NCBI GenBank assembly: GCA_018669475.1
Contig: JABHCC010000032.1
Coordinates: forward strand, 6,058 to 70,057
Direction of reading: 5' to 3'
Length of the DNA: 64,000 nucleotides
Source: Bacteroidota bacterium
GTDB lineage: Bacteria; Bacteroidota; Bacteroidia; Bacteroidales; UBA12481
The notes under the pieces are model-generated. The model saw only the letters and a program-made list of their open reading frames with translations, was not told the origin of the DNA and searched no databases. The number at the start of each line of letters is the position of its first letter. Position 1 is the stretch's first letter. Of the stretch, positions 13,404 through 63,636 are shown one piece after another. A program made the position numbers and the translations under genes.

Positions 13404-13478
13404 TAATTCTTCCTTCGCAGGTTGATGAAAAAATAATACATTTGCACTCCCAACACAACTCGGGATGTAGCTCAGCCA
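13404..13478 (+). repeat. Direct repeat copy 3 (the native tRNA-Pro promoter and 5' end); lacks the CA-rich tract
   Basis: taattcttccttcgcaggttgatg-aaaaaataatacatttgcactccc-aacacaact-cgggatgtagctcagccag. Contains a TAcaTTTG -7-like element about 16 nt upstream of the tRNA 5' end. Confidence 0.75.
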
Positions 13479-13534
13479 GGTTAGAGTACCCGTCTGGGGG
13501 GCGGGGGGCCGGAAGTTCAAATCTTCTCATCCCG
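13460..13534 (+). tRNA. tRNA-Pro: tRNA-Pro (anticodon GGG)
   Basis: Hand-folded cloverleaf: acceptor CGGGATG/CATCCCG, D-arm GCTC-AGCCAGGTTA-GAGT, anticodon stem CCCGT/GCGGG with loop CTGGGGG (U33, anticodon GGG), 5-nt variable loop, T-arm GGAAG-TTCAAAT-CTTCT, discriminator A. CCA is not encoded. Confidence 0.8.
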
Positions 13535-13547
13535 ACGGCTGAAAATG

Positions 13548-48368: not shown

Positions 48369-49175
48369 TTATTTGCGTATCCTTGGATATTGTATTCTGA
48401 ATCCCCTGCCGGATGCATCCTTAACCACCTTTATGGATTCAAAACTAGCCTCAAATGATCCGTTTAAAACCATTTCGTGTGGCTCACCTGCCACTATCCC
48501 TCTATCTGGCTGTATCAGCCAGAGGCAATCGGCAGTTTGCAAGGCCAGGTCAAGATCATGCGTCGTCAAAACAACAGCTTTGTTTGTTTCAAGTGCTAAT
48601 TCCCTCAACAACAACATTGTTTCAATTCGATTTGGAAGATCCAGATGAGCAGTGGGTTCATCAAGCAATATCAGCGGAGTATCCTGGGCCAGTGCTTTAG
48701 CTATCATTGTACGTTGCAGCTCACCATCGCTGAGCTCCTGTACATCTCTTGATCTAAAATCATCCAGACTAACCTGATGTAAGGCTTCCCTGATTTTTTC
48801 TCTGTCCTCATTGCCCATGCGGCCAAGCCAGTTTATATGTGGATATCTACCCATAGAAACCAGGTCATAAACACTGAGATTCTTTACCTGCACTTTTTCT
48901 GTCAGAACGACGCTCATCAGGCGGGCCAGGTGCTTCTGCTGATTAACATTTACCTTTTGTTGGGCTATAATGACATTACCGGATAGTGCTGACTGAATAC
49001 CTGCCAGGGTTCTTAGTAAAGTGGATTTCCCTGATCCGTTTCGTCCAAGAATACATACCACTTGCCCGCGATTGACTGACAAATTCAGATTCGAAAGCAC
49101 AGTATATGGCTTCCCTCCCTGTTTGGGATATCCGATCCCGAGATCTTCTGTGATAAGTATAGCATCCTGATTCAT
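48369..49175 (-). CDS. ABC transporter ATP-binding protein (BtuD/FecE-like, for iron-siderophore/cobalamin importers)
   Basis: Walker A GRNGSGKST, LSDGELQR signature and LLLDEPTAHLD. Confidence 0.85.
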   Translation of the reverse strand: MNQDAILITEDLGIGYPKQGGKPYTVLSNLNLSVNRGQVVCILGRNGSGKSTLLRTLAGIQSALSGNVIIAQQKVNVNQQKHLARLMSVVLTEKVQVKNLSVYDLVSMGRYPHINWLGRMGNEDREKIREALHQVSLDDFRSRDVQELSDGELQRTMIAKALAQDTPLILLDEPTAHLDLPNRIETMLLLRELALETNKAVVLTTHDLDLALQTADCLWLIQPDRGIVAGEPHEMVLNGSFEASFESIKVVKDASGRGFRIQYPRIRK

Positions 49176-49183
49176 AGAACAAA

Positions 49184-50278
49184 CTAATTAGCTAAGCTTC
49201 TTCGTTTTCGTCTGGTAATCACCCAAATAACAACAGGAGCACCAAACAAAGCGGTAACCGAATTAATGGGCAAAACCTGGTTAGATCCAGGCATCTGAGA
49301 TATGATATCACAACATAACATCAAAATACTTCCAATGCAAATAGTTGCTGGAATCAGAATCCTGTGATCAGAGCTTTTGAGCAGGTTTCGTGCCAGATGC
49401 GGAACCGCTACGCCAATAAAGGCAATTGGTCCGGTAAAGGCTGTTAATCCACCAGCAATCACACTTGTCAGAAGAATGATCCACAATCGCGACCTTTTAA
49501 CATCAACACCAATTCCCCTGGCATAATTCTCACCTAACAATAATGCATTCAAAGGCTTTTGCATGAAGAGTGTGAAAAGAATGCCAGTGACAACTATAGG
49601 AGCAAAAATTACAAATTGATTCCAGGTTACTCCTGAAATACTACCAAAAGTCCAAACGAGAAAACTATGAACGGTGTCAGGATCGCTAAAGTATTCCAAT
49701 ACACTTACAATGGCACCAGTAATACTGCCAAACATGATTCCAATTATCAGAATGGAAACTGAATCATTTACTCTGACCGAGACAGCAATGACAAGCATCA
49801 TAACCAGCACCGATCCAAGCATTGAGGCACCTACAAGACCTAAACTTCCGACGAAAGGCATTCCTATTATACTCAGGCCTCCAATACCAGCAGCCATCAC
49901 GAATATAGCAACTCCCAGACTGGCTCCTGAGCTGATCCCCAGAACAAAGGGACCTGCTAAGGGATTCCTGAAAAGGGTTTGCATCATTAATCCGGCTAAT
50001 GATAATCCTGATCCGACCAATATTGCAGTAAGAGCTTTCGGCAGCCTGAAAACCAGCAGGATGTCGCGCAAGTACTCTTCTCCATCCGGCCCTACACTTC
50101 GGATCAGTTTTGCTGGTGAGATCAATACACTTCCCAGCAGCAGATCAAGACAAAATAAAAGCAGAACTCCTGCGATTAGTAAGGTAAAAAACAAGCGTAT
50201 TTTTCTTCTTTGATTCAAACTACTGCAATTTTTTATAATACACCAACTTATGATTTGGCAATACTTCAGGATGGGCAA
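49184..50278 (-). CDS. FecCD/BtuC-family ABC permease
   Basis: About 9 TM helices with a BtuC-like pattern ([34 protein letters not shown]). Confidence 0.85.
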   Translation of the reverse strand: [364 protein letters not shown]

Positions 50279-51386
50279 TAAAAATCAGATCTGCAAGTAC
50301 CACATGTGGTTGCATTATGGCTCCTTCCCAATAATCATTGGCCAATCCCCTCAGCATGCGATTAGACAAGCTGTAGACCTCCTTTTCTTTAAAAGCCCTG
50401 AACATTGAATAGCGAGGATCTTCTATAGTCAAGTCAGATAATTTTCGGGCTGATACATTCAACCAAAAAGGAGCATCATTGAATTCATGCACAACTGCTT
50501 CAAAACCCAATGGAAGGCTTTCCGATTCTTTCTTCTCATACCAGGGATAGAAAAAACCGGCATCCTTTAGGAATTCAGACATATAATTCCCTCCTCCCGG
50601 CATGAACCAGGTCCCTTTGAAACTATTACCAATCAACACTTTCGGATGCTCAATCTGATCTGAAATCTGACCTTTCAATTCGAGATAATCTTCTTCAATG
50701 GATTGAAAAATTGAATCAGCCACAGATTCCATATTCAACAATAATCCAAATACTTTGATCCACTCAGCCCTTCCCAAAGGTGTAGGCTCCAACCATTCCA
50801 TCACATATACTAAATCAATTCCTGTTTGTCGGATTCTGGCATCTTTTGCAAGTTGGCCGGCAAATCCTGTTTGGATGATAATATCAGGTTGCTGGTTCAC
50901 CAAACTTTCATAATTATACTCCATATCTGAGCCAATCCGAATCAGATCTCCTTTTTTGTATTTATCATACAATGCACTGTGATACAACCTATCCGGAGTT
51001 GTACATCCGATAACTCGTTCAGCTTCACCAAAAGCGTCTAAATAAGCTACATGAGTGGTGGAAAAAATGGCCCATCTGGCAGGATTGGCACGTAAAATTT
51101 TCTCTTTATCAAGATGGTCCGGAATCGCAACATCTGGCTTAAGCACCTGATAAACGGCGAAGGTGTCGCGTTGATTCCATGGGTCAAGAATACTAAGCTC
51201 TGTATATCCCTCTTCCTCCCGGATGACGAAACCACGGGCATATTTCTCTGATCCGGAAATACTCCGGCCCGTATTCATGGACTGCTTATGATCATTACGA
51301 TCAACTTTAGATGACTTAGATGGAGAACATCCCGACCAAGTCAGTAAAAAAATAATCCAAAACAGACCTGCAAATAGCTTTTTCAT
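50220..51386 (-). CDS. Periplasmic substrate-binding lipoprotein (BtuF/cluster-A-like) of the ABC importer
   Basis: Lipoprotein signal LLTWSGCS. Class III PBP-like. It is the first gene of the operon and sits directly downstream of the riboswitch. Confidence 0.7.
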   Translation of the reverse strand: MKKLFAGLFWIIFLLTWSGCSPSKSSKVDRNDHKQSMNTGRSISGSEKYARGFVIREEEGYTELSILDPWNQRDTFAVYQVLKPDVAIPDHLDKEKILRANPARWAIFSTTHVAYLDAFGEAERVIGCTTPDRLYHSALYDKYKKGDLIRIGSDMEYNYESLVNQQPDIIIQTGFAGQLAKDARIRQTGIDLVYVMEWLEPTPLGRAEWIKVFGLLLNMESVADSIFQSIEEDYLELKGQISDQIEHPKVLIGNSFKGTWFMPGGGNYMSEFLKDAGFFYPWYEKKESESLPLGFEAVVHEFNDAPFWLNVSARKLSDLTIEDPRYSMFRAFKEKEVYSLSNRMLRGLANDYWEGAIMQPHVVLADLIFIAHPEVLPNHKLVYYKKLQ

Positions 51387-51419: not shown

Positions 51420-51665
51420 GGGATCGTTTAATAACGACTCCATGGGTTTCGCCCCGAAAACCATGTATCAATATATTCGCGGCAGGTCTTCTGGCTTTCC
51501 CGATCGCATCCTCCTTCCCGCCCCGATCAACGATGGCAGTGGTCAGACTGGACACGACACTATCCCTAAAAATTGGGATCGGAATTACAGCTGCGGGGGC
51601 AGCTCCGGACTTTCAAAACAATTGAGCACCGGATTCCCTATTAAGCATTGCACCGACAAGAAAAC
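51420..51665 (-). ncRNA. Cobalamin (B12) riboswitch
   Basis: Minus-strand sequence shows AATAGGGAA..GGTGCTCAA..TCCGGAGCTGCCCCCGCAGCTGTAA and a B12-box-like GACCACTGCC, matching conserved cobalamin riboswitch elements. It is immediately upstream of the btuF-like gene. Confidence 0.75.
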
Positions 51666-51766
51666 AAAGATAAATAAAACAAGAAGACAAAAAACTGTTT
51701 AAAATAATTCTAAATAAGCAAAATTCATTGTTTCTTTGCAAATCAAAACCCAGAGATAGATAAAAC

Positions 51767-54235: not shown

Positions 54236-54523
54236 ATGAATAATCTGGAAAAAAGTTTTAAACCAAAAAGCAAAACCCTGATCTTTCCTTTTGAAGAAAA
54301 ACATCTGATCATTCCTGTTCCTGATAATCTGGCAAACTTCCAGGAAGTGTATGCCGTCAATGAATCAGGCCTGGAATTATGGATGCACCTTTGCGATGGG
54401 AAAACTCCGGCAGATATCTTCAGAGAATGGAATCAGCAGTATGCAATCCCGGAGATTGAGCTGCTTAACTCAATACTGATTTTTTTAAGAAATCTAAGCA
54501 CTTTACTTGATGTCAATGAATAG
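54236..54523 (+). CDS. PqqD-family protein (RiPP recognition element-like peptide chaperone)
   Basis: 95 aa. EVYAVNESGLELWMHLCDGKTPADIF...LLNSILIFLRNLSTLLDV matches the PqqD pattern (vyilN.tg..iW.l.dG.rt..ei...l...y.......dv..fl..L). Confidence 0.65.
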   Translation: MNNLEKSFKPKSKTLIFPFEEKHLIIPVPDNLANFQEVYAVNESGLELWMHLCDGKTPADIFREWNQQYAIPEIELLNSILIFLRNLSTLLDVNE

Positions 54524-55511
54524 CCAGATACCTCCAGTATTTCTGGATCTGTGCGGTATCAAAATATCTATTGCATATGATTGTCCCCAAGGAATTTGTG
54601 TTGAAAGCAGATATCGTAATTTCATCCAAGCAATAGTAAAAGAGCCTGATTATGTAATACGGATTTGTTCAGAGCTTCCGGCAACAAAAAGCCAGCCATT
54701 GAAGCTCATCCGGGTGCCATTGATTGTAACATCAGCATCCGGCCGGTGGATCTCAACAAACCAACATTATCAAATCACTATATTCGAGGGATTCACTCAA
54801 TTTGATATCCCATTCAGGGATCAAATAAGCCCAATCAGGATGCGGGTGAGTAATAATCCTGATGAGAAATGCATTCTGGCCACAACAGCTGAGGGAAGCA
54901 AATTTCCGATCCTACCCTATCCTCTCGATATCTTATTGTTATATCATCTGGGACAATGGTTTGACTTGCTGATATTTCATGGCGCAGGATTCAGTCTGAA
55001 CGACCGTGGCTTTTTATGCCTTGGGAGATCCGGAGCAGGGAAAAGCACCCTTTCCGGTATTGTTGAGGACTTTGCTGGCAAACTGATCCAGGATGATCGG
55101 GTTATTTTGCAAAAAACTGGTGAGGGATGGCTTATTCATCCTTTACCCCTTCATCCTGACAATAGGCCGGTACATTGCAATCTGGATGCAATCTATTGTC
55201 TGTTCCACGGACAATCCACCAACCGGGAGATTCCTTTATATGGAGAAAGCAAATTGAAAAATTCACTCCCTCATCTGGTACAATTTCCCTCATGGCAAAA
55301 TCCTTTTGTCAATAGTCTTCATCTGGTTCAGCTCTTAATGAAACAAATAAGTCTGTCTGAACTTTTCTTTATCCCGAATCATAGTATAATTGAATATCTG
55401 AAACATGTCAAAGCTAGAAGCAAATCTCATTTTATTCCTCTTACAAAACCGTTGCCGGGTGAAATCCAGAGCGATTGGAATCAGCATGGTTCCTCAAATA
55501 TTCCCCGGTGA
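54507..55511 (+). CDS. HPr kinase/phosphorylase C-terminal-domain-like kinase (HprK-related)
   Basis: HGAGFSLNDRGFLCLGRSGAGKSTLSGIV...DDRVIL resembles the HprK P-loop kinase domain. Confidence 0.55.
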   Translation: MMSMNSQIPPVFLDLCGIKISIAYDCPQGICVESRYRNFIQAIVKEPDYVIRICSELPATKSQPLKLIRVPLIVTSASGRWISTNQHYQITIFEGFTQFDIPFRDQISPIRMRVSNNPDEKCILATTAEGSKFPILPYPLDILLLYHLGQWFDLLIFHGAGFSLNDRGFLCLGRSGAGKSTLSGIVEDFAGKLIQDDRVILQKTGEGWLIHPLPLHPDNRPVHCNLDAIYCLFHGQSTNREIPLYGESKLKNSLPHLVQFPSWQNPFVNSLHLVQLLMKQISLSELFFIPNHSIIEYLKHVKARSKSHFIPLTKPLPGEIQSDWNQHGSSNIPR

Positions 55512-55791
55512 TTCAATCACTCTTGAGCCTGCTCTTTCTGAACCAGAGCCCGGAGATATTCTTGTATACAAAGCACTGGACAAGTTGGTTGTTCACCGAC
55601 TACTTACCTTAAAAGGAAAGCAAAATGAGATCCTGATACTTAAGGGAGATAACAATCCTCTTGCGGATTCTCCAGTGTGTAAAGACAGAATAATCGGCAG
55701 AGTTACAGATATCAAACCGGGTATCCGAAGAGCCATTTACCTCTTAATCAGTCCGGCACTCAGGAGATTTCAAAAGCTTTTATCCAGGTGA
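55405..55791 (+). CDS. Signal peptidase I-like protein of the S26B (archaeal/eukaryal Sec11-type, Ser-His) kind
   Basis: GISMVP (Ser nucleophile box), a second GD box (PGDILVY), LVVHRLL (His box, as in Sec11/SPC18 rather than bacterial SPase K) and GDNN. 128 aa. The tracked ORF overlaps the HprK-like gene by 107 bp. Confidence 0.5.
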   Translation: MSKLEANLILFLLQNRCRVKSRAIGISMVPQIFPGDSITLEPALSEPEPGDILVYKALDKLVVHRLLTLKGKQNEILILKGDNNPLADSPVCKDRIIGRVTDIKPGIRRAIYLLISPALRRFQKLLSR

Positions 55792-57257
55792 TTAGTAGAA
55801 AAAGTGTAATCCTGATATTAGCACTAAGCGCTTTGGCTCTCATTGCCGGATTTGAGAGCGCTATTTTTACCAGATTCCTTTACCAATCAGAATTCAATTA
55901 TTTCCACCTAATTCTATTTGCAGGTATATGCCGAGTTTCAAACTGGAGTATCAGACCGATATCTCTGATAGCTGATCAGATCATTGAAAGGGACAGCTAC
56001 AGGAACTTATTTAACAGATGTACAAATTGGTCACTCAAAGCTATTCGCCAAGCTGTATTCCATGCCGACGTGGCAAAATTAATTGAGCAAAATGAAAAAA
56101 TCAGATATATCATTATCGGTAAAATCATCCCCGGTGTTTCAGCCATGACGGTGGCAATCAGTCTTTTTTTTATACTGAGCATATATCAGCCCTTGCATCT
56201 GCCCCTTATCTTAATTTTAGTAGTGCTTGAAATCGTGAGCCAAAGTATACAGGTAAAATGCAAGCATAAGAATGATTTAGAAATCATTGAATCAGAAAGA
56301 AAATTCCATTATTTGAAACAGCAATTGTTCTCTCCAATTATCCTCAGAGAACATCGTATTTGTCGAAGTATTCCAGCAATTATTGAAAAAAGCATTTACC
56401 AGCTTTCGAACAATCAAAGGACGAAAAGAAAGCATTACGGTCAGATACAGATGATTAAATCACTAATCAGATGTGCTCAGGTAATATGCCTGATATTCTG
56501 TATTAATGCTCTTGATTTGCTTCCAATCAATTCTCATGAGTCAGGTTTTAGTCCGGCCTCTTTGGGCTCTCTGTTTGCTGCCTTCAAACTGATTAGATCA
56601 GGATCACAATTGGGTAGCCTGCCGGCGATTCTTTTGGAAATTCGTTTGTGTAATATCACTATAAAAACCTTTGATCAAAATTGGGATACTTCAGAGAATC
56701 ATAGTTTATGCTTGAACACGACCCTGCCATCCAACATTGACACCAACAAAGGAATAACAGCTGTTACAGGTCCGAATGGATCAGGAAAATCCACCCTTTT
56801 ATTGGACCTGGCAGAAAGATTTTCAAATGATCCTGCAAAAAAGTCCACAGGAATTTTATTTCAGAATTTTGCTTTGCTTCAAGCAAGCATTGTAAACAAT
56901 ATTGTGCTTTACAAAAGCTGTGATATTCGTCATGATGATATTGACCGGGCCTTGCACGCTTCGGGATTCAAAGAGATTATGACAAAATATTGCTGGAATC
57001 TGGATACCGAGATCGGTGAAGAAATTGGCAGGGGACGTGGAATCAGTCTTGGTGAGTGGCAAAAGTTGGCCCTGGCACGTGCCCTGTATCATGGACAAGA
57101 TTATCTGATACTTGATGAGCCCGATGCACATCTGGATACTGCCTCAAAAAAATTATTCGAGAATGAAATTAGTAGGCTAAAAATGAAATCCAGGCTAATA
57201 ATTGCCTCACACTCAGAACAACTAATTAAAAAAGCAGACTATGTTATCCGAATTTGA
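55788..57257 (+). CDS. ABC exporter (fused N-terminal 6-TM domain and C-terminal ATPase)
   Basis: TM helices followed by Walker A GPNGSGKST, a degenerate signature (ISLGEWQ) and Walker B LILDEPDAHLD. Confidence 0.8.
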   Translation: MISRKSVILILALSALALIAGFESAIFTRFLYQSEFNYFHLILFAGICRVSNWSIRPISLIADQIIERDSYRNLFNRCTNWSLKAIRQAVFHADVAKLIEQNEKIRYIIIGKIIPGVSAMTVAISLFFILSIYQPLHLPLILILVVLEIVSQSIQVKCKHKNDLEIIESERKFHYLKQQLFSPIILREHRICRSIPAIIEKSIYQLSNNQRTKRKHYGQIQMIKSLIRCAQVICLIFCINALDLLPINSHESGFSPASLGSLFAAFKLIRSGSQLGSLPAILLEIRLCNITIKTFDQNWDTSENHSLCLNTTLPSNIDTNKGITAVTGPNGSGKSTLLLDLAERFSNDPAKKSTGILFQNFALLQASIVNNIVLYKSCDIRHDDIDRALHASGFKEIMTKYCWNLDTEIGEEIGRGRGISLGEWQKLALARALYHGQDYLILDEPDAHLDTASKKLFENEISRLKMKSRLIIASHSEQLIKKADYVIRI

Positions 57258-58383
57258 AATTAGTAATATTGCTCTTTTTCACCAGAATTGCTGTAATGCT
57301 GTTAATTACGAACATGATATGTTCGATCACAATAAGTGGAACAGTTTTATAGATAAAGCCACTAAGAATGGTATCAGCAGTCAAATATATATGTGGCTTA
57401 GAAGGAATAAGCAAGCAGAAGGCCTTACTATGTCAAACCAGAAGCACCTTCAATCACTCAGTATTTTAGCCTCAACGAGAAATCAACAATTACTGTCAGA
57501 GTATCAGACTATTACACAAGAACTCCAAAAAAATTCAATTCCTTTTAGTCCCCTGAAAGGGATATGGCTGCTGGAAAATCTCTATCCATCCAATTATCCA
57601 AGATTGACAAGTGATATGGATATATTAGTTCATCCTGAGGACATTCAAAAAGTATCAGAGCTAAGCAGGGAAATGGGATATAAACAGGATCCTCTCAGGT
57701 CACGTTTTGATTCAAAGATTAGTTCTCCTCCAGGGCATCATATACCAGCTCTCAGAAAAAACAGCATCAGCATAGAATGGCATTTTAAACCTTATTCAAC
57801 TGCTTCGTCTGAAATTTGCAGAGAGTTACTGGAGACTCCTGGTCCAGAGGTACATTTCTATGTTATGGCCAAACACCTTCAGCGTCACTATCAGGCAGGA
57901 TTTGGTCAACTAAAATGGCTATTCGATCTCATTTTGTTAAGTTCTCAATTACCCCTTGACAAATTCCTTAATTGGATGACCAGGGTTCCCGAAATTGAAA
58001 ATCCTATACAGATAAGAGAATTTGCTATGATACTTTTTCCTTTGAGTCATCAAACAGATATTCGTAATAGTATCGCACTCATTGATACGGCTTTGGACCG
58101 CTTTCTGAATAACTACAATAACAACAATAATCATCATAATAATCACAATACCAGAGTAATACCAAGAATAATTCCGGCCCAACTCAGATTGAATGAAAAG
58201 TACTGGTGGGTATTGGCTACCCTCTTTCCAACTCCTGAATATATGCGCTTCTATCGGTCGAACGATGAAGGTAAAGCCTTGCTTATTCTGTATCTGAACA
58301 GATGGTTCAGACTAGTGTGTAAAGCTGCAAGCATCTGTATAACAAGCATCAAAGCTAAGTCAAGGTTAAAAGATGGAAATTAA
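57241..58383 (+). CDS. Uncharacterised nucleotidyltransferase-family protein (PF14907-like)
   Basis: About 380 aa. A pol-beta-like NTase core (SPLKGIWLLENLY...SDMDILV) and a poly-Asn/His low-complexity insert (NNYNNNNNHHNNHN). It overlaps the ABC gene by 17 bp. Confidence 0.45.
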   Translation: MLSEFEISNIALFHQNCCNAVNYEHDMFDHNKWNSFIDKATKNGISSQIYMWLRRNKQAEGLTMSNQKHLQSLSILASTRNQQLLSEYQTITQELQKNSIPFSPLKGIWLLENLYPSNYPRLTSDMDILVHPEDIQKVSELSREMGYKQDPLRSRFDSKISSPPGHHIPALRKNSISIEWHFKPYSTASSEICRELLETPGPEVHFYVMAKHLQRHYQAGFGQLKWLFDLILLSSQLPLDKFLNWMTRVPEIENPIQIREFAMILFPLSHQTDIRNSIALIDTALDRFLNNYNNNNNHHNNHNTRVIPRIIPAQLRLNEKYWWVLATLFPTPEYMRFYRSNDEGKALLILYLNRWFRLVCKAASICITSIKAKSRLKDGN

Positions 58384-58398
58384 GTATTTTTACGCCAA

Positions 58399-60750
58399 AT
58401 GTCAATCGAAATGAAAAAGTGGATTTCTCTATCTCCCATCCTGTTATTACTGGGAATGCCGATTCTATTGTCAGAGTGCAAAACAGAAAAAGAAGCAGAA
58501 ATGTATGCCGGATCATCCAGTTGCATAGAATGCCATGAAAGGTTTTATCAACTTTGGGCCCCATCTCACCATGGTTTGGCAATGCAGGGAGTAGATTCAA
58601 CTTTCATAGTAAATGAGTTAAATTTCACCAAGGCAGAAGCTGAGATTCAAGGATTTATGTTCAGTGCCTTTGTCCGGAATGACAGCCTCATTATGCTGGA
58701 ACAAAAAGAGGAAATCAAAAGAGAATACCCTGTAATTCATGCTTTAGGAGGAAAATATATCTATTATTTCCTTACACCATTTGAAAATGGTCGCTTACAG
58801 GTATTGCCTTTAGCTTATGATTTAAAAAAAGCTGAGTGGTACAATACTCCGGCTTCAGCTGTTCGACATTTCGTTGATCCTCTTGAAGATGAAGAGCTTG
58901 ATTGGCATAATTTTGCATATACTTTTAATACTAGTTGCCATTCCTGCCATGTTAGTCAGCTGGAGAACAATTATGATCATGAAAGTGATCAATATATCAC
59001 TACATGGAGAGAAGCTGGAATCAATTGTGAGACATGTCACGGGCCCAGCCAGGATCATGTAGAAATATTCAGAAAGATAAAAGACGGGGAAGTTCCTGAA
59101 GACATTGGACTTATTGTCACCAAAACCTTCACTCATGAGCAACACAACTCTTCCTGTGCTCCATGTCATGCTAAGATGCGCTCCCTTACCCTTTCATACC
59201 CACCTGGTGAAAGATTCTTTGATCACTTTGATTTGGTAACTCTGGAGGATCCGGATTTTTATCCTGATGGTCGTGATTTAGGAGAGAACTATACGATGAC
59301 CGGATGGCATCAGGGGGCCTGTGCTCAATCAGGTTTACTTGATTGCATTCATTGCCATACATCCAGTGGCAGATATCGCTTTGCTAATGAAAACCACAAT
59401 GGAGCCTGTTTGCCCTGCCATGAGGAGAATGTAAACAATATCTGGACGCACAGTCACCATCCGGTAGGAACAGAAGACCTGAAATGTATTTCCTGCCACA
59501 TGCCAAAGACGACTTTTGCCAGAATGGACAGAAGCGATCATTCAATGCGTCCGCCGATGCCTGCAACAACAATCGCGTTTGAATCTCCCAATGCTTGTAA
59601 TATTTGTCATGAGAATGAAACGGCTGAATGGGCGAATGCCTTGGTACAGAAATGGAACGGCGGAGAGTACCAGGATGAAACATTGCATAAGGCCCGGCTC
59701 CTGCTGGATGCGCGAACCGGTGAGTGGAAATACCTGGATGAATTACTTCAGGGCTTATATAACAATGCATTTGATGAGGTGTACACCAATTCCTTTATCC
59801 GGCTCTTGGCGACTCTGGATAATGATGCCAAATGGCCTGCCATTCTTGTTCATGCAGGAAACCCTTCTCCCATGATCAGGGCCTCGGTGATTAATTTGTT
59901 CGGACAAATTCCGTCACTTGAGACAAAAAACATTCTGCTTCAGGCCAGTCGTGATCAGTATCGTGTGGTCAGACGGGCAGTGGCCAGTAGTGTGGCTGGA
60001 TTTCCTGAGGGAGCCTTCTCCCCTGCTGAACTTGAAAGTCTTAATCCTCTGATGACAGAATATGAAGAAGCCTTTCTTGCAAGACCTGATGATTGGGCTG
60101 CACACTATAATCTGGGTAATTATTACCAGAACCAGCAGAGACTTGAAGAGGCAATAAAAGCATATGAAAAATCTATCGAGCTCTTTCCTGATGCTATCGC
60201 ACCATTAATCAATCAAAGCTTTGCCTATAATTTATTAGACCAAAAAGAGATGGCACTTAACCGGCTTTACAGGGCTTTGGAAATAGATCCGGATAACGAA
60301 GCCACACATCTCAATTTTGCCATGTTGATGGGTGAAATGGGCAGGCTTGAAGAGGCTGAAGCATCTATGAGGAAAGTGTTTGAAATTAATCCTGAGTCAG
60401 CTCAGGCTGCCTATAATCTTAGTGTTATGCTGGCCGACAGAGATACAATTGAATCACTTGAGTACAGCCGTCAAGCGATGGAACTGGGAATTGACCAGCC
60501 AAAATATGCCTATACATATGCATTCTATCTGCTCAGATCCGGTGAAAATGCAAAGGGGCAATCCGTGCTGGAACAAACCATTTCGAGTTTTCCTGCTTAT
60601 CCGGATGCCTGGCTATTACTGGGTTCACTTTTTGAACAAAGAAACGACTCAACTCAAGCTCTATCAGTATATGAAAGAGCAATAAAACTGGGTAGTTTCG
60701 GCGAGGAAGATCAGGCCCGGTTCGAACAAAAAATCAACAGTATGAAGTAA
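58399..60750 (+). CDS. Octaheme c-type cytochrome with C-terminal HEAT/TPR repeats
   Basis: Signal peptide and eight CxxCH motifs (CIECH, CHSCH, CETCH, CAPCH, CIHCH, CLPCH, CISCH, CNICH). TPR-like repeats at the C-terminus (AHYNLGNYYQNQQRLEEAIKAYEKSIELFPD...). Confidence 0.7.
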   Translation: MSIEMKKWISLSPILLLLGMPILLSECKTEKEAEMYAGSSSCIECHERFYQLWAPSHHGLAMQGVDSTFIVNELNFTKAEAEIQGFMFSAFVRNDSLIMLEQKEEIKREYPVIHALGGKYIYYFLTPFENGRLQVLPLAYDLKKAEWYNTPASAVRHFVDPLEDEELDWHNFAYTFNTSCHSCHVSQLENNYDHESDQYITTWREAGINCETCHGPSQDHVEIFRKIKDGEVPEDIGLIVTKTFTHEQHNSSCAPCHAKMRSLTLSYPPGERFFDHFDLVTLEDPDFYPDGRDLGENYTMTGWHQGACAQSGLLDCIHCHTSSGRYRFANENHNGACLPCHEENVNNIWTHSHHPVGTEDLKCISCHMPKTTFARMDRSDHSMRPPMPATTIAFESPNACNICHENETAEWANALVQKWNGGEYQDETLHKARLLLDARTGEWKYLDELLQGLYNNAFDEVYTNSFIRLLATLDNDAKWPAILVHAGNPSPMIRASVINLFGQIPSLETKNILLQASRDQYRVVRRAVASSVAGFPEGAFSPAELESLNPLMTEYEEAFLARPDDWAAHYNLGNYYQNQQRLEEAIKAYEKSIELFPDAIAPLINQSFAYNLLDQKEMALNRLYRALEIDPDNEATHLNFAMLMGEMGRLEEAEASMRKVFEINPESAQAAYNLSVMLADRDTIESLEYSRQAMELGIDQPKYAYTYAFYLLRSGENAKGQSVLEQTISSFPAYPDAWLLLGSLFEQRNDSTQALSVYERAIKLGSFGEEDQARFEQKINSMK

Positions 60751-61311: not shown

Positions 61312-63636
61312 ATGAATAAATTGACACAAATCATTCAAATAATTGTTTTATCGCTTATCATATTAATTCCCTTATCTGGTTTTGATACCAGCGTTGATAA
61401 TCCTGGGCCTGAAAAAATCCTGTATGTAGCCAGATCTCAATATTTGTCAGATCATCATAATACGGCAACAATCTTCCAAACCGGAGAAATTAATACTCAA
61501 AGCTTCAGACCCGGTGCTGCACTTAAGGTTTTCAATACACAAAGCAAGGAAATCACATCAATTTTTGAAACTGAAACCGGAATGATCAGGGATCCGGAAG
61601 TTTCCTTTGATGGAAAGAATATTGTTTTTTCATTCAGACAGAGCATAAGCGACGATTATCATATTTATGAAATTACTGCTGAGGGTACTAATCTCAGACA
61701 GCTTACATCAGGTGAAGGAGTTTCTGATATAGACCCGATTTACCTGCCGGATGGTGGTATTGCTTTCAGCAGTACAAGAGAACCAAAATACTGCATGTGC
61801 AACCGTCATATTATGGCAAATATGTTTCGAATGAATTCAGATGGCAGTCACATTACTCAGCTGGGACGAAGTACACTCTTTGAAGGACATACGGCATTAA
61901 TGAATGACGGACGTCTGATTTATGATCGCTGGGAGTATATTGACAGGAATTTTGGTGATGCCCAGGGTTTATGGACTGTTAACCCTGATGGTACGAGGCA
62001 TGCAATTTTTTACGGAAATAACACTAACTCACCGGGCGGTGTGATTGACCCAAGACCAATACCCGGCTCAAATCTGGTACTGTGTATTTTTGGATCATGC
62101 CATGACCGGCCATGGGGAGCCCTCACCCTCATTGACAGAAGTAAAGGTGTAGATGGTGAAGAGGCTGTAGTTAAGATATGGCCCGAGAATGCCAGGTCTC
62201 ATATTGGCAAAGGCAATTGGGACGAATTCAAGCAACTAACCGTAAGATATGAAGATCCGTTTCCAATTGATAATAAAAACTTTCTGGTCAGCAAAAGCAA
62301 TCATATTATAAAAGGGGGCCTTGACCCAGCCGAAGAAAAAATGGCTATTTATCATATTCAGCTTGATGGAGGAGAAAATCTTTTGTTCGAGGATCCTTCA
62401 GCTAGTTGCTTTGATCCTATGCCACTGGCCCCAAGGTTTAAGCCACCCGTAATACCTTTTAAAAGAAATTTCACTAATGGTCCCGGGCAGTTTTACGTGT
62501 CAGATGTATATGAGGGAACTCATATGCAAGGTGTTCAAAGGGGAAGCGTCAAATACCTCAGGGTAATTGAATCCCCGCCAAAAAGAACATGGACACCTGC
62601 ATCATGGGGTGGCCAGGGACAGCAAGCTCCTGGGGTTAACTGGCATAGCTTTGAAAACAAAAAAATACTTGGAACTGTACCTGTAGAGCCGGATGGATCT
62701 GCCTTTTTTGAAGTTCCTTCAGGAGTTTATCTGTATTTTCAGTTATTGGACACCGATAAGAAAATGGTTCAATCAATGCGTAGCGGCGTGATTGCACAAG
62801 CCGGGGAAATCAATGGTTGCATTGGTTGCCATGAGGATAGACTTTCTGCTCCGGTAAATGTGAATAAAATGCCAATGGCCATCAGAAAGGCTCCTCACAA
62901 AATGAATGGATGGAATGGTGCCAGCCAGACCTTTAATTATGCCACTGAGGTACAGCCTGTATTCGATAAACACTGCTTATCGTGTCATGATTTTGGCTCT
63001 GAAAACCCATCAGGTCTGATATTGGCCGGTGACAAGAACCCATTTTTTAATGCCAGCTATATCGATCTGCATGTTAAAAAAATAGTGGCATGTATAGGTG
63101 GTGGCCCTGCTGATATACAGGATGCCTATTCATGGGGATCACATCCCAGCAAATTAATTCAGGAAATCGAGAAGGGTCATCATGATGTGAAACTCAACAA
63201 GAGCGAAATGCAAGTGCTTTACACATGGATTGACCTGAATGGAGTATATTACCCTGAGTATGAAAGTGCCTACCCCAACCATCCGGCAGGAAGAAGTCCG
63301 ATTACACATGAGGAACTTAAAGAATTAGGCCGTTTATGTAATATTGACTTTTATACGATTAAAGATTTTAATCGAAAATCGGGACCACAAATCAGTTTCG
63401 AGAGACCAGATCTAAGTCCTTGTCTCGATGGCACTTCCAGCGACGAAGATTATAAAACTGCCATATCAATTATCAGTAAGGGGTATCAAAGGCTAAAAGA
63501 GACACCCCGTTGTGATATGCCGGGATTTGTTCCCAGTCCTCTTCATCAGAAAGTACTGGCCAAATATGACCGTCTGGCTGAGGAAGCTGAAGTTTGTCGA
63601 TTGGAAATAGTAAACAGTGAATCTCAAAATCAGTAA
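61312..63636 (+). CDS. Secreted TolB/PD40-like beta-propeller protein with a C-terminal diheme cytochrome c region
   Basis: Signal peptide. PD40-like repeats (DPEVSFDGKNIVFS, DPIYLPDGGIAFSS). Two CxxCH motifs (CIGCHEDR, CLSCHDFG). Confidence 0.5.
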   Translation: MNKLTQIIQIIVLSLIILIPLSGFDTSVDNPGPEKILYVARSQYLSDHHNTATIFQTGEINTQSFRPGAALKVFNTQSKEITSIFETETGMIRDPEVSFDGKNIVFSFRQSISDDYHIYEITAEGTNLRQLTSGEGVSDIDPIYLPDGGIAFSSTREPKYCMCNRHIMANMFRMNSDGSHITQLGRSTLFEGHTALMNDGRLIYDRWEYIDRNFGDAQGLWTVNPDGTRHAIFYGNNTNSPGGVIDPRPIPGSNLVLCIFGSCHDRPWGALTLIDRSKGVDGEEAVVKIWPENARSHIGKGNWDEFKQLTVRYEDPFPIDNKNFLVSKSNHIIKGGLDPAEEKMAIYHIQLDGGENLLFEDPSASCFDPMPLAPRFKPPVIPFKRNFTNGPGQFYVSDVYEGTHMQGVQRGSVKYLRVIESPPKRTWTPASWGGQGQQAPGVNWHSFENKKILGTVPVEPDGSAFFEVPSGVYLYFQLLDTDKKMVQSMRSGVIAQAGEINGCIGCHEDRLSAPVNVNKMPMAIRKAPHKMNGWNGASQTFNYATEVQPVFDKHCLSCHDFGSENPSGLILAGDKNPFFNASYIDLHVKKIVACIGGGPADIQDAYSWGSHPSKLIQEIEKGHHDVKLNKSEMQVLYTWIDLNGVYYPEYESAYPNHPAGRSPITHEELKELGRLCNIDFYTIKDFNRKSGPQISFERPDLSPCLDGTSSDEDYKTAISIISKGYQRLKETPRCDMPGFVPSPLHQKVLAKYDRLAEEAEVCRLEIVNSESQNQ

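Follow-up and report, generated by a model that had tools for sequence, protein, structure and literature searches.

The window analysed here is a 64,000-nucleotide (nt) stretch of a Bacteroidota genome (contig JABHCC010000032.1 of assembly GCA_018669475.1, positions 6,058 to 70,057), and the gene in question lies at 55405..55791 on its forward strand. The 128-amino-acid (aa) product is a serine peptidase of the S26B (Sec11/archaeal) type without a membrane anchor. It probably acts as a cytoplasmic leader peptidase which depends on a RiPP (peptide made on the ribosome and modified after translation) recognition element (RRE), similar to LppS, the enzyme described by Popov et al. (Nat Commun, May 2026; PMC13381572) for linear polyphosphorylated peptides (LPPs). 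The five-gene operon in which it is embedded would then be a Bacteroidota counterpart of the LPP pathway. This reading is favoured because the catalytic residues, the homology to LppS, the gene set, the lineage of the RRE and the conservation of the operon all agree.

Sequence features and family assignment

The peptidase gene starts with ATG, and the GISM, LVVHRLL and GDNN boxes reported in the preliminary description of this DNA are present exactly as claimed. Ser27 lies in the G25-I-S27-M28 box (Ser codon 55483-55485), His64 in the L61-V-V-H64-R-L-L box (His codon 55594-55596), and Asp82 and Asp88 in G81-D82-N-N-P-L-A-D88 (codons 55648-55650 and 55666-55668, respectively). Ser27, His64 and Asp88 are the candidate catalytic residues, with Asp82 being putatively structural.

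Among the curated models, NCBIfam TIGR02228 (sigpep_I_arch) is passed, although marginally, with 53.9 bits against a cut-off of 51.85 (E 1.8e-14). PF00717 (Peptidase S24-like) is the sole Pfam match (25.6, cut-off 23.3). Neither the bacterial signal peptidase (SPase) I model TIGR02227 (17.2 bits, cut-off 47) nor the SipW equivalog NF046067 (22.5 bits, cut-off 190) is reached, and TIGR02754, the model for the maturation protease of nickel superoxide dismutase (NiSOD), gives a weak match (0.0019) far under its cut-off. In a phmmer search of the PDB sequences, human SEC11A was the only match, with S27 opposite its nucleophile, H64 opposite the His of IVHRV and GDNN opposite GDNN.

With HMMER, 1.84 billion representatives were scanned exhaustively, which yielded 3023 homologues at E<=1e-3. 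When the 30 best of these were aligned, no variation was seen at M28, P30, H64, R65, G81, D82 and D88, while G25 and S27 are conserved in at least 90%. The family profile made from this alignment matches SEC11C (3.8e-11), SEC11A (1.4e-10), LexA (1.9e-4) and bacterial SPases (7e-4 or higher), with LepB chains at 0.7 or higher. The boxes that characterize S26B enzymes can be followed one by one: G25-I-S27-M-V-P30 aligns with GSMEP of SEC11A/C (G-S-M-x-P in general), H64-R65 aligns with IVHRV of the same proteins, with His and not Lys as the general base, and D82 and D88 form the Asp pair of G-D-N-N-x-x-x-D. An AlphaFold2 model (pLDDT 94.5, pTM 0.82) shows a beta core with an N-terminal helix (residues 3-14) and a C-terminal helix (residues 107-127). 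When this model was compared with known structures using Foldseek, SEC11C and SEC11A ranked first, and structures of LexA and UmuD were also listed. The model supports the SPase fold, for which the preliminary description suggested structure prediction as a check.

Together, these comparisons support an S26B-type protein, which is neither S26A nor S24. A self-cleaving regulator of the S24 type (LexA, UmuD or lambda cI) or a Ser-Lys enzyme of the S26A type (LepB- or SodX-like) was considered in view of the Pfam match, the NiSOD protease score and the presence of LexA and UmuD in the Foldseek list, but both were rejected. The general base is invariably His and not Lys, the protein is a single 128-aa domain with neither a DNA-binding domain nor a region for a self-cleavage site, the family profile ranks SEC11 7 orders of magnitude ahead of LexA, and TIGR02227 and TIGR02754 stay far under their cut-offs, so that this alternative is essentially refuted. 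The Sec11/archaeal type suggested in the preliminary description hence holds when S26A and S26B models are compared, and His64 aligns not only with SEC11A/C but also with H68 of LppS.

In S26B enzymes, an N-terminal transmembrane (TM) anchor puts the active site at the trans side of the membrane, and the window protein departs from them in this respect. In agreement with the preliminary description, which saw no obvious N-terminal TM anchor, no TM segment is found in the peptidase: the highest Kyte-Doolittle mean over 19 residues is 0.91, against a threshold of about 1.6. The same applies to 29 of the 30 family members, and the single exception peaks inside the beta core. SEC11A/SEC11C, archaeal SPase I and SipW of Bacillus subtilis share the Ser-His-Asp residues and the GSM, HR and GDNN...D boxes with the window protein. 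However, these enzymes are membrane-anchored, have a trans-side active site and cut Sec signal peptides, whereas the window protein is predicted to be cytoplasmic. It therefore appears to have an S26B (Sec11/SipW-like) fold that lost its membrane anchor. Because there is no TM anchor but only a short N-terminal helix, the protein probably acts like an S26B protease without being a signal peptidase in the cell-biological sense.

A SipW-like secretory signal peptidase of the endoplasmic reticulum type, processing Sec signal peptides such as that of the neighbouring multihaem cytochrome, is accordingly very improbable, even though sigpep_I_arch is the best curated model, the public name is 'signal peptidase I' and the downstream 783-aa protein begins with a hydrophobic, signal-like segment. 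Besides the missing anchor and the NF046067 score, two observations speak against it. True archaeal SPases (cluster 5 of the sequence similarity network (SSN) in the data of PMC13381572) have a hydrophobic N-terminus where the window protein has an amphipathic helix. Moreover, the linkage to the RRE and kinase genes persists in L018, one of four related Bacteroidota loci (L017, L018, L100 and L101), despite different flanks.

Start codon of the peptidase gene

In the public annotation, the window peptidase starts with a GTG at V19 and is 110 aa long (P0001). The ATG at 55405 is the better-supported start, because alignments with homologues begin around residue 5, because conservation in L017 and in a further locus (L012) extends over residues 1-27, and because of the substitution pattern in the overlap with the preceding kinase gene. 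The 3' end of the kinase gene and the 5' end of the peptidase gene overlap out of frame by 107 nt, an arrangement that is kept in three species (window 55405-55511, L017:1858-1964, and L012) with both frames remaining open. Between the window and L017, 14 of the 27 substitutions in the overlap are located at third positions of the peptidase frame, i.e. at first positions of the kinase frame. To judge from this alignment, the substitution pattern shows selection acting on the peptidase frame.

Truncation of the N-terminus in public calls is not limited to the window gene (55405-55791, called as 110 aa). The orthologues at L017:1939-2214 (P0004, 91 aa), L100:10965-11276 (103 aa) and L101:7438-7779 (113 aa) are annotated from the Met right after the catalytic Ser, and the nucleophile is therefore deleted from the annotated protein in these three cases. 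The docking helix is lost in all four.

Comparison with LppS and the LPP pathway

As reported in PMC13381572, the SPase I-like (SpI) enzyme LppS takes the leader off LPPs. Based on co-occurrence, five proteins make up the core of this pathway: LppS (the SpI), LppB (a discrete RRE), LppK (an HprK-like kinase), LppN (a nucleotidyltransferase) and LppD (an MsbA-like exporter). In the core peptide, Ser3 is polyphosphorylated by LppK, and the leader is no longer removed when lppS is deleted. LppS cuts the leader of the precursor LppA after T-1, the T of FET, only when LppB is present, and its S29A, H68A and D93A mutants are inactive. The N-terminal helix of LppS is predicted to lie on the beta-sheet formed by LppB and the leader, while LppN was inactive in the heterologous system. 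The leader motif is YxxPxVLxHQxIxFETxxS, and precursors can be up to 200 aa long. In the Discussion of the same paper, LPPs are called restricted to Bacillota.

With BLASTP, the window peptidase is 29% identical over 85 aa (E 2e-9) to LppS of Paenibacillus alginolyticus (WP_029196374.1), with S27, H64, D82 and D88 opposite S29, H68, D87 and D93. In an hhalign comparison, the family profile matches LppS with 99.1% probability (E 6.7e-19) across 111 columns, the N-terminal helix included. Both are anchorless S26B folds with an N-terminal helix and equivalent Ser, His and Asp residues, differing in length (128 aa versus 151 aa for LppS) and in host (Bacteroidota versus Bacillota). The role of leader peptidase that the preliminary description considered plausible next to a PqqD/kinase pair thus gains support from the experiments on this homologue and from the presence of the same gene set.

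This gene set is found in one operon (54236-58383), in the order RRE, kinase, peptidase, ABC exporter and nucleotidyltransferase, with the peptidase as the third gene. All genes are on the forward strand and all junctions overlap, by 17, 107, 4 and 17 nt; the peptidase stop overlaps the ABC start by 4 nt, and the last 17 nt are shared by the ABC and nucleotidyltransferase genes. The five genes are therefore almost certainly co-translated.

The first gene (54236..54523) encodes a 95-aa discrete RRE of the PqqD family, resembling LppB and lasso B1 proteins (Pfam PqqD 28.1 bits, cut-off 23.4). As a single sequence it had no match in the PDB, and a profile including its orthologues was required. 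This profile matches TbiB1 (1e-10), PbaB1 (9x90, 1e-7) and TfuB1 (2.4e-5), as well as LppB (9x8z, 3.2e-4) and PqqD (7.7e-4), suggesting that the RRE belongs to the lasso-B1/LppB lineage. The second gene (54507..55511; public call from ATG 54516, 331 aa) encodes a 334-aa putative P-loop kinase of the HprK-like/ScmC-like type, comparable to LppK. Its assignment is based on weak, sub-threshold matches around the Walker A motif (GRSGAGKST), namely to HprK_rel_B (7.7e-5), Hpr_kinase_C, HprK_rel_A and ScmC, and on orthologues carrying PF27840 (ScmC). Among the precomputed matches to PF27840, the kinase of L018 is unmarked and the L017 orthologue is only 'faint'.

Directly after the peptidase, in the position of LppD, a 489-aa ABC exporter is encoded (55788..57257) in which permease and ATPase are fused (Pfam ABC_tran 1e-12, residues 323-446). 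Four hydrophobic TM-like windows are present in its N-terminal half, and among NCBIfam models it matches, in part, exporter families best (CydD, type I secretion, MsbA and bacteriocin ABC). The last gene (57241..58383) encodes a 380-aa LppN-like protein of PF14907, 'uncharacterised nucleotidyltransferase' (Pfam NTP_transf_5, 2.8e-28, 99.6 bits).

Compared to the LPP biosynthetic gene clusters (BGCs), the order in the window is B-K-S-D-N instead of A-K-B-S-D-N, a cis-encoded lppA-like precursor is missing, and the cassette, with feoAB on one side and a multihaem/TPR gene on the other, is not part of a capsule or lasso locus. The BGCs of the phosphorylated lasso peptides paeninodin and pseudomycoidin also combine an HprK-like kinase, PF14907, a discrete RRE and an ABC exporter. 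In the window, however, the leader peptidase is a serine enzyme of S26B type, and neither the lasso B2 cysteine (transglutaminase-like) protease nor the Asn-synthetase-like cyclase is among the domain-scanned flanking genes (approximately 7 kb on either side). The RRE-Finder paper and a 2025 RRE paper mention neither kinases nor S24/S26 peptidases.

Closer in taxonomy are two proteins in which an SpI domain is fused N-terminally to an ABC exporter (743-747 aa, SSN cluster 8), i.e. WP_013444635.1 of Paludibacter propionicigenes (747 aa) and OIP81682.1 of a Porphyromonadaceae metagenome-assembled genome (MAG), both listed without study in PMC13381572. These fusions come from the same phylum, the SpI domain is 31% identical to the window peptidase over 101 aa including the helix, and an RRE gene is adjacent. 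They differ in that peptidase and exporter are one protein, whereas they are split genes with a 4-nt stop/start overlap in the window. Such fusions parallel bacteriocin transporters with a C39 peptidase domain (peptidase-containing ATP-binding transporters, PCAT) and fit cleavage at the cytoplasmic face that is coupled to export.

The fold, catalytic residues, LppS homology, gene set and operon conservation result from the present sequence comparisons, while the activity and the order of steps would be as in the LPP pathway. By homology, the PqqD-like RRE would bind the leader of a ribosomal precursor, after which the HprK-like kinase, with its Walker A motif present, may phosphorylate a core Ser. 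The peptidase would dock via helix 3-14 on the beta-sheet of RRE and leader and, as LppS does, might cut the junction of leader and core using Ser27 as nucleophile, His64 as base and Asp88 as the third member. Speculatively, the PF14907 nucleotidyltransferase could decorate the phosphate. Finally, the ABC protein would export the product, a coupling that the fused Paludibacter relative supports.

Conservation of the operon in Bacteroidota

Loci identical to the window were found in several MAGs of uncultured Bacteroidota, e.g. GCA_018645035.1 (contig JABGPH010000001.1). A word-indexed search with the single peptidase sequence retrieved the same species only, and a contig search with the four closest peptidases yielded five distant loci only, none of which was informative on the Bacteroidota cassette. 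The RRE, kinase and peptidase genes are retained in L017, L018, L100 and L101. In L017, L018 and L100 the next gene after that for the peptidase is the ABC gene, and the nucleotidyltransferase is present in L100 and L101, the contigs of L017 and L018 ending within the ABC gene. While the kinases of these four loci are only 31-50% identical to the window kinase, the Ser, His and Asp motifs are kept in every peptidase.

In the window, L100 and L101, the cassette is located between feoAB and the multihaem/TPR gene. In L017 it adjoins feoB (only that side is visible), and in L018 the flanks are different. This fixed site in spite of a kinase identity of 31-50% indicates long vertical retention.

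Search for a precursor peptide

Several approaches were used to find a precursor gene. A tblastn search of the 64-kb window with three precursors of the family gave nothing credible (best E 0.37). Six-frame scans of the window, L017, L018, L100 and L101 for [YWF]xxPx[hydrophobic]...[FE][TS], both strict and in a scored loose form, retrieved only out-of-frame or in-gene noise, and inspection of every [YWF]xxP open reading frame (ORF) of up to 260 aa in these five loci likewise gave noise only. An all-vs-all comparison of small ORFs from five Bacteroidota loci identified only frame shadows of real genes and a riboswitch region. The N-terminus of the RRE protein (SFKPKSK..IFPFEE) was also considered as a fused leader, and was rejected as it aligns with the normal beta1-beta2 of lasso B1 proteins.

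An LPP cluster contains LppA, a precursor of 35-200 aa with YxxPxVLxHQxIxFETxxS in the BGC. Because this was looked for and not found in the 64-kb window or in the four related loci, the window locus is, on the present sequences, not filed as a bona fide LPP cluster. Regarding the unrecognised precursor proposed in the preliminary description, the leader protease part is supported, but no precursor was found in the searched loci.

Several points weigh against an LppS-like leader peptidase. No LppA-like precursor was found in the window, L017, L018, L100 and L101, and the intergenic gaps beside the cassette are too short for a precursor gene. The identity between the window peptidase and LppS is low (29%), and activity in the family was measured for Bacillota members only. 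The window kinase passes no curated threshold. In addition, L101 is without the ABC gene, the nucleotidyltransferase coming directly after the peptidase, and no BLASTP similarity was found between the TM half of the window ABC protein and the available part of the Paludibacter fusion.

The main alternative is an orphan or re-purposed cassette, in which RRE, kinase and peptidase would have ceased to make a classical RiPP. Its substrate would carry a diverged leader and be encoded in trans, non-canonical or as large as a protein, or the cassette would be a relic without any substrate. Such a cassette would explain why no LppA-like ORF is present in cis in any of the five loci, its fixed site in the window, L017, L100 and L101 resembles vertical inheritance rather than a mobile BGC, and LPP precursors can indeed reach 200 aa (PMC13381572). 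However, all catalytic and P-loop motifs are kept at an orthologue identity of 31-50%, which argues against decay, and the tight gene overlaps indicate one co-expressed unit. Since other RiPPs with unlinked precursors are known, a precursor missing in cis also does not mean that the chemistry is different. An orphan cassette is thus unlikely but deserves more weight than the secretory alternative, and an LppS-type leader peptidase remains the favoured function.

Radical SAM-linked relatives

Distant homologues of the window peptidase were found in a second type of cassette (L014, L015 and L016), which combines a small ORF, an S26B peptidase, a ScmC/HprK-like protein, PqqD and a radical S-adenosylmethionine (rSAM)/SPASM protein; PF14907 and ABC genes are nearby in some of these loci. 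A metagenome scan added 80 loci, and genes were tallied by local phmmer over 92 peptidase-bearing loci. A kinase-like gene is present in 67 of these, an RRE in 56 and an rSAM gene in 45. The rSAM cassettes (L014-L016, L021-L099) come from soil and peat metagenomes and MAGs, for which some protein names point to Acidobacteriota and Binatota.

In 39 loci, an ORF of 55-72 aa is located directly upstream of the peptidase gene (L014:9817-9993, L015:9812-9991, L016:9864-10028 and 36 loci among L021-L099). Its consensus is ...K[KR]PYxKPxFxHE[KR]VFET followed by MALACGKLSPTQAQCRFNRRNS, and this highly conserved precursor family has two Cys residues and a C-terminal Ser. Read at the level of sequence, the leader K[KR]PYxKPxFxHE[KR]VFET is the LPP motif, including the FET where LppS cuts. 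Well beyond Bacillota, the homologous peptidases thus go together with YxxP...FET leaders, which supports a leader-peptidase role for the family. Peptidases of the rSAM cassettes are 30-40% identical to that of the window and are likewise linked to RRE and HprK/ScmC-like genes. These cassettes have an rSAM maturase and, next to the peptidase gene, a precursor with Cys residues. In the window neither was found, and the 64 kb contain no rSAM homologue.

No description of the precursor family ending in MALACGKLSPTQAQCRFNRRNS was found in the searchable literature, and nothing relevant was found on SynChlorMet, on PF00717 together with RiPPs or on HprK together with radical SAM. In PMC13381572, radical SAM is not mentioned in the main text. 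Its Supplementary Data 1 lists a few SpI homologues from Acidobacteriota, Planctomycetota and Bacteroidota with adjacent RREs, for which the precursors are given as 'ND'.

Two further observations concern these cassettes. A protein of approximately 610 aa is encoded beside the rSAM-linked precursor and peptidase genes (L014:12887-14722, L016:8025-9851 and 38 + 13 metagenome loci). It has no Pfam or NCBIfam match and is possibly an additional maturase or a component for immunity or export. In a member of candidate division CSSED10-310 (L019:3975-6954), the order is PqqD, rSAM, a 59-aa ORF, a ScmC-like gene and the S26B peptidase. The 59-aa ORF (...RKPYFPPKLRVIDLVAEEVLAIGCKFPDSGTAPLSPVSCVGNNCAQAGS) has a leader end without FET, and contains Cys residues and a C-terminal Ser.

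Novelty and relevance

Textbooks describe S26 signal peptidases as enzymes of the membrane that act outside the cytoplasm. When an RRE recruits a soluble Sec11-type protease, the S26 fold is put to a different use, which was recognised only in 2026 and for Bacillota only. As a concept, the leader peptidase is already published (PMC13381572) and is not novel. What remains new is the Bacteroidota variant, precursor-less and fixed in the chromosome, and the large family of rSAM-linked relatives. The window locus, its orthologues and the metagenomic relatives suggest a much wider phylogenetic range for this class of enzymes than has been reported, with at least two further architectures, i.e. the orphan Bacteroidota cassette and the rSAM cassette with its conserved two-Cys precursor.

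A broader proposal can be made tentatively, and is rather less well assured than the function of the window protein. LPP-like machinery may extend beyond Bacillota and be kept vertically, at one chromosomal site of a Bacteroidota lineage, without a linked precursor, acting on a trans-encoded or non-canonical substrate that may be as large as a protein. Anchorless Sec11-type peptidases might then constitute a family of RiPP leader peptidases for [Y/W]xxP...FET leaders that is very large and spans several phyla, including an undescribed rSAM-linked class with precursors ending in ...VFET-MALACGKLSPTQAQCRFNRRNS. The anchorless family comprises at least 3000 clusters at 50% identity. In genome mining, the anchorless S26B peptidase might be used, as the RRE is, as a marker that does not depend on class. 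With regard to annotation, it is relevant that such genes are routinely mislabelled 'signal peptidase I' and are often truncated, with the catalytic Ser lost.

Genomic surroundings

The cassette is flanked upstream by feoAB and an ABC uptake operon controlled by a cobalamin riboswitch, and downstream by the gene for the multihaem cytochrome/TPR protein. Further flanking genes encode an RRM protein and a protein with an HZS_alpha domain. The riboswitch (51464-51672, reverse strand; Rfam RF00174, 85.5 bits) precedes a Peripla_BP_2/FecCD/ABC ATPase operon (48369-51386, reverse strand), which points to a putative B12-type uptake system. This riboswitch/uptake region is conserved in L101.

Downstream, 58399-60750 (forward strand) encodes a multihaem cytochrome c of 783 aa with fused HEAT/TPR repeats, and 61312-63636 (forward strand) a 774-aa protein with the middle domain of hydrazine synthase alpha (PF18582, 7e-34). 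Both genes are also found in synteny on the downstream side of the cassette in L001, L100 and L101. The lone tRNA gene of the window is located at 13461-13535 on the forward strand (Rfam tRNA, 57.9 bits).

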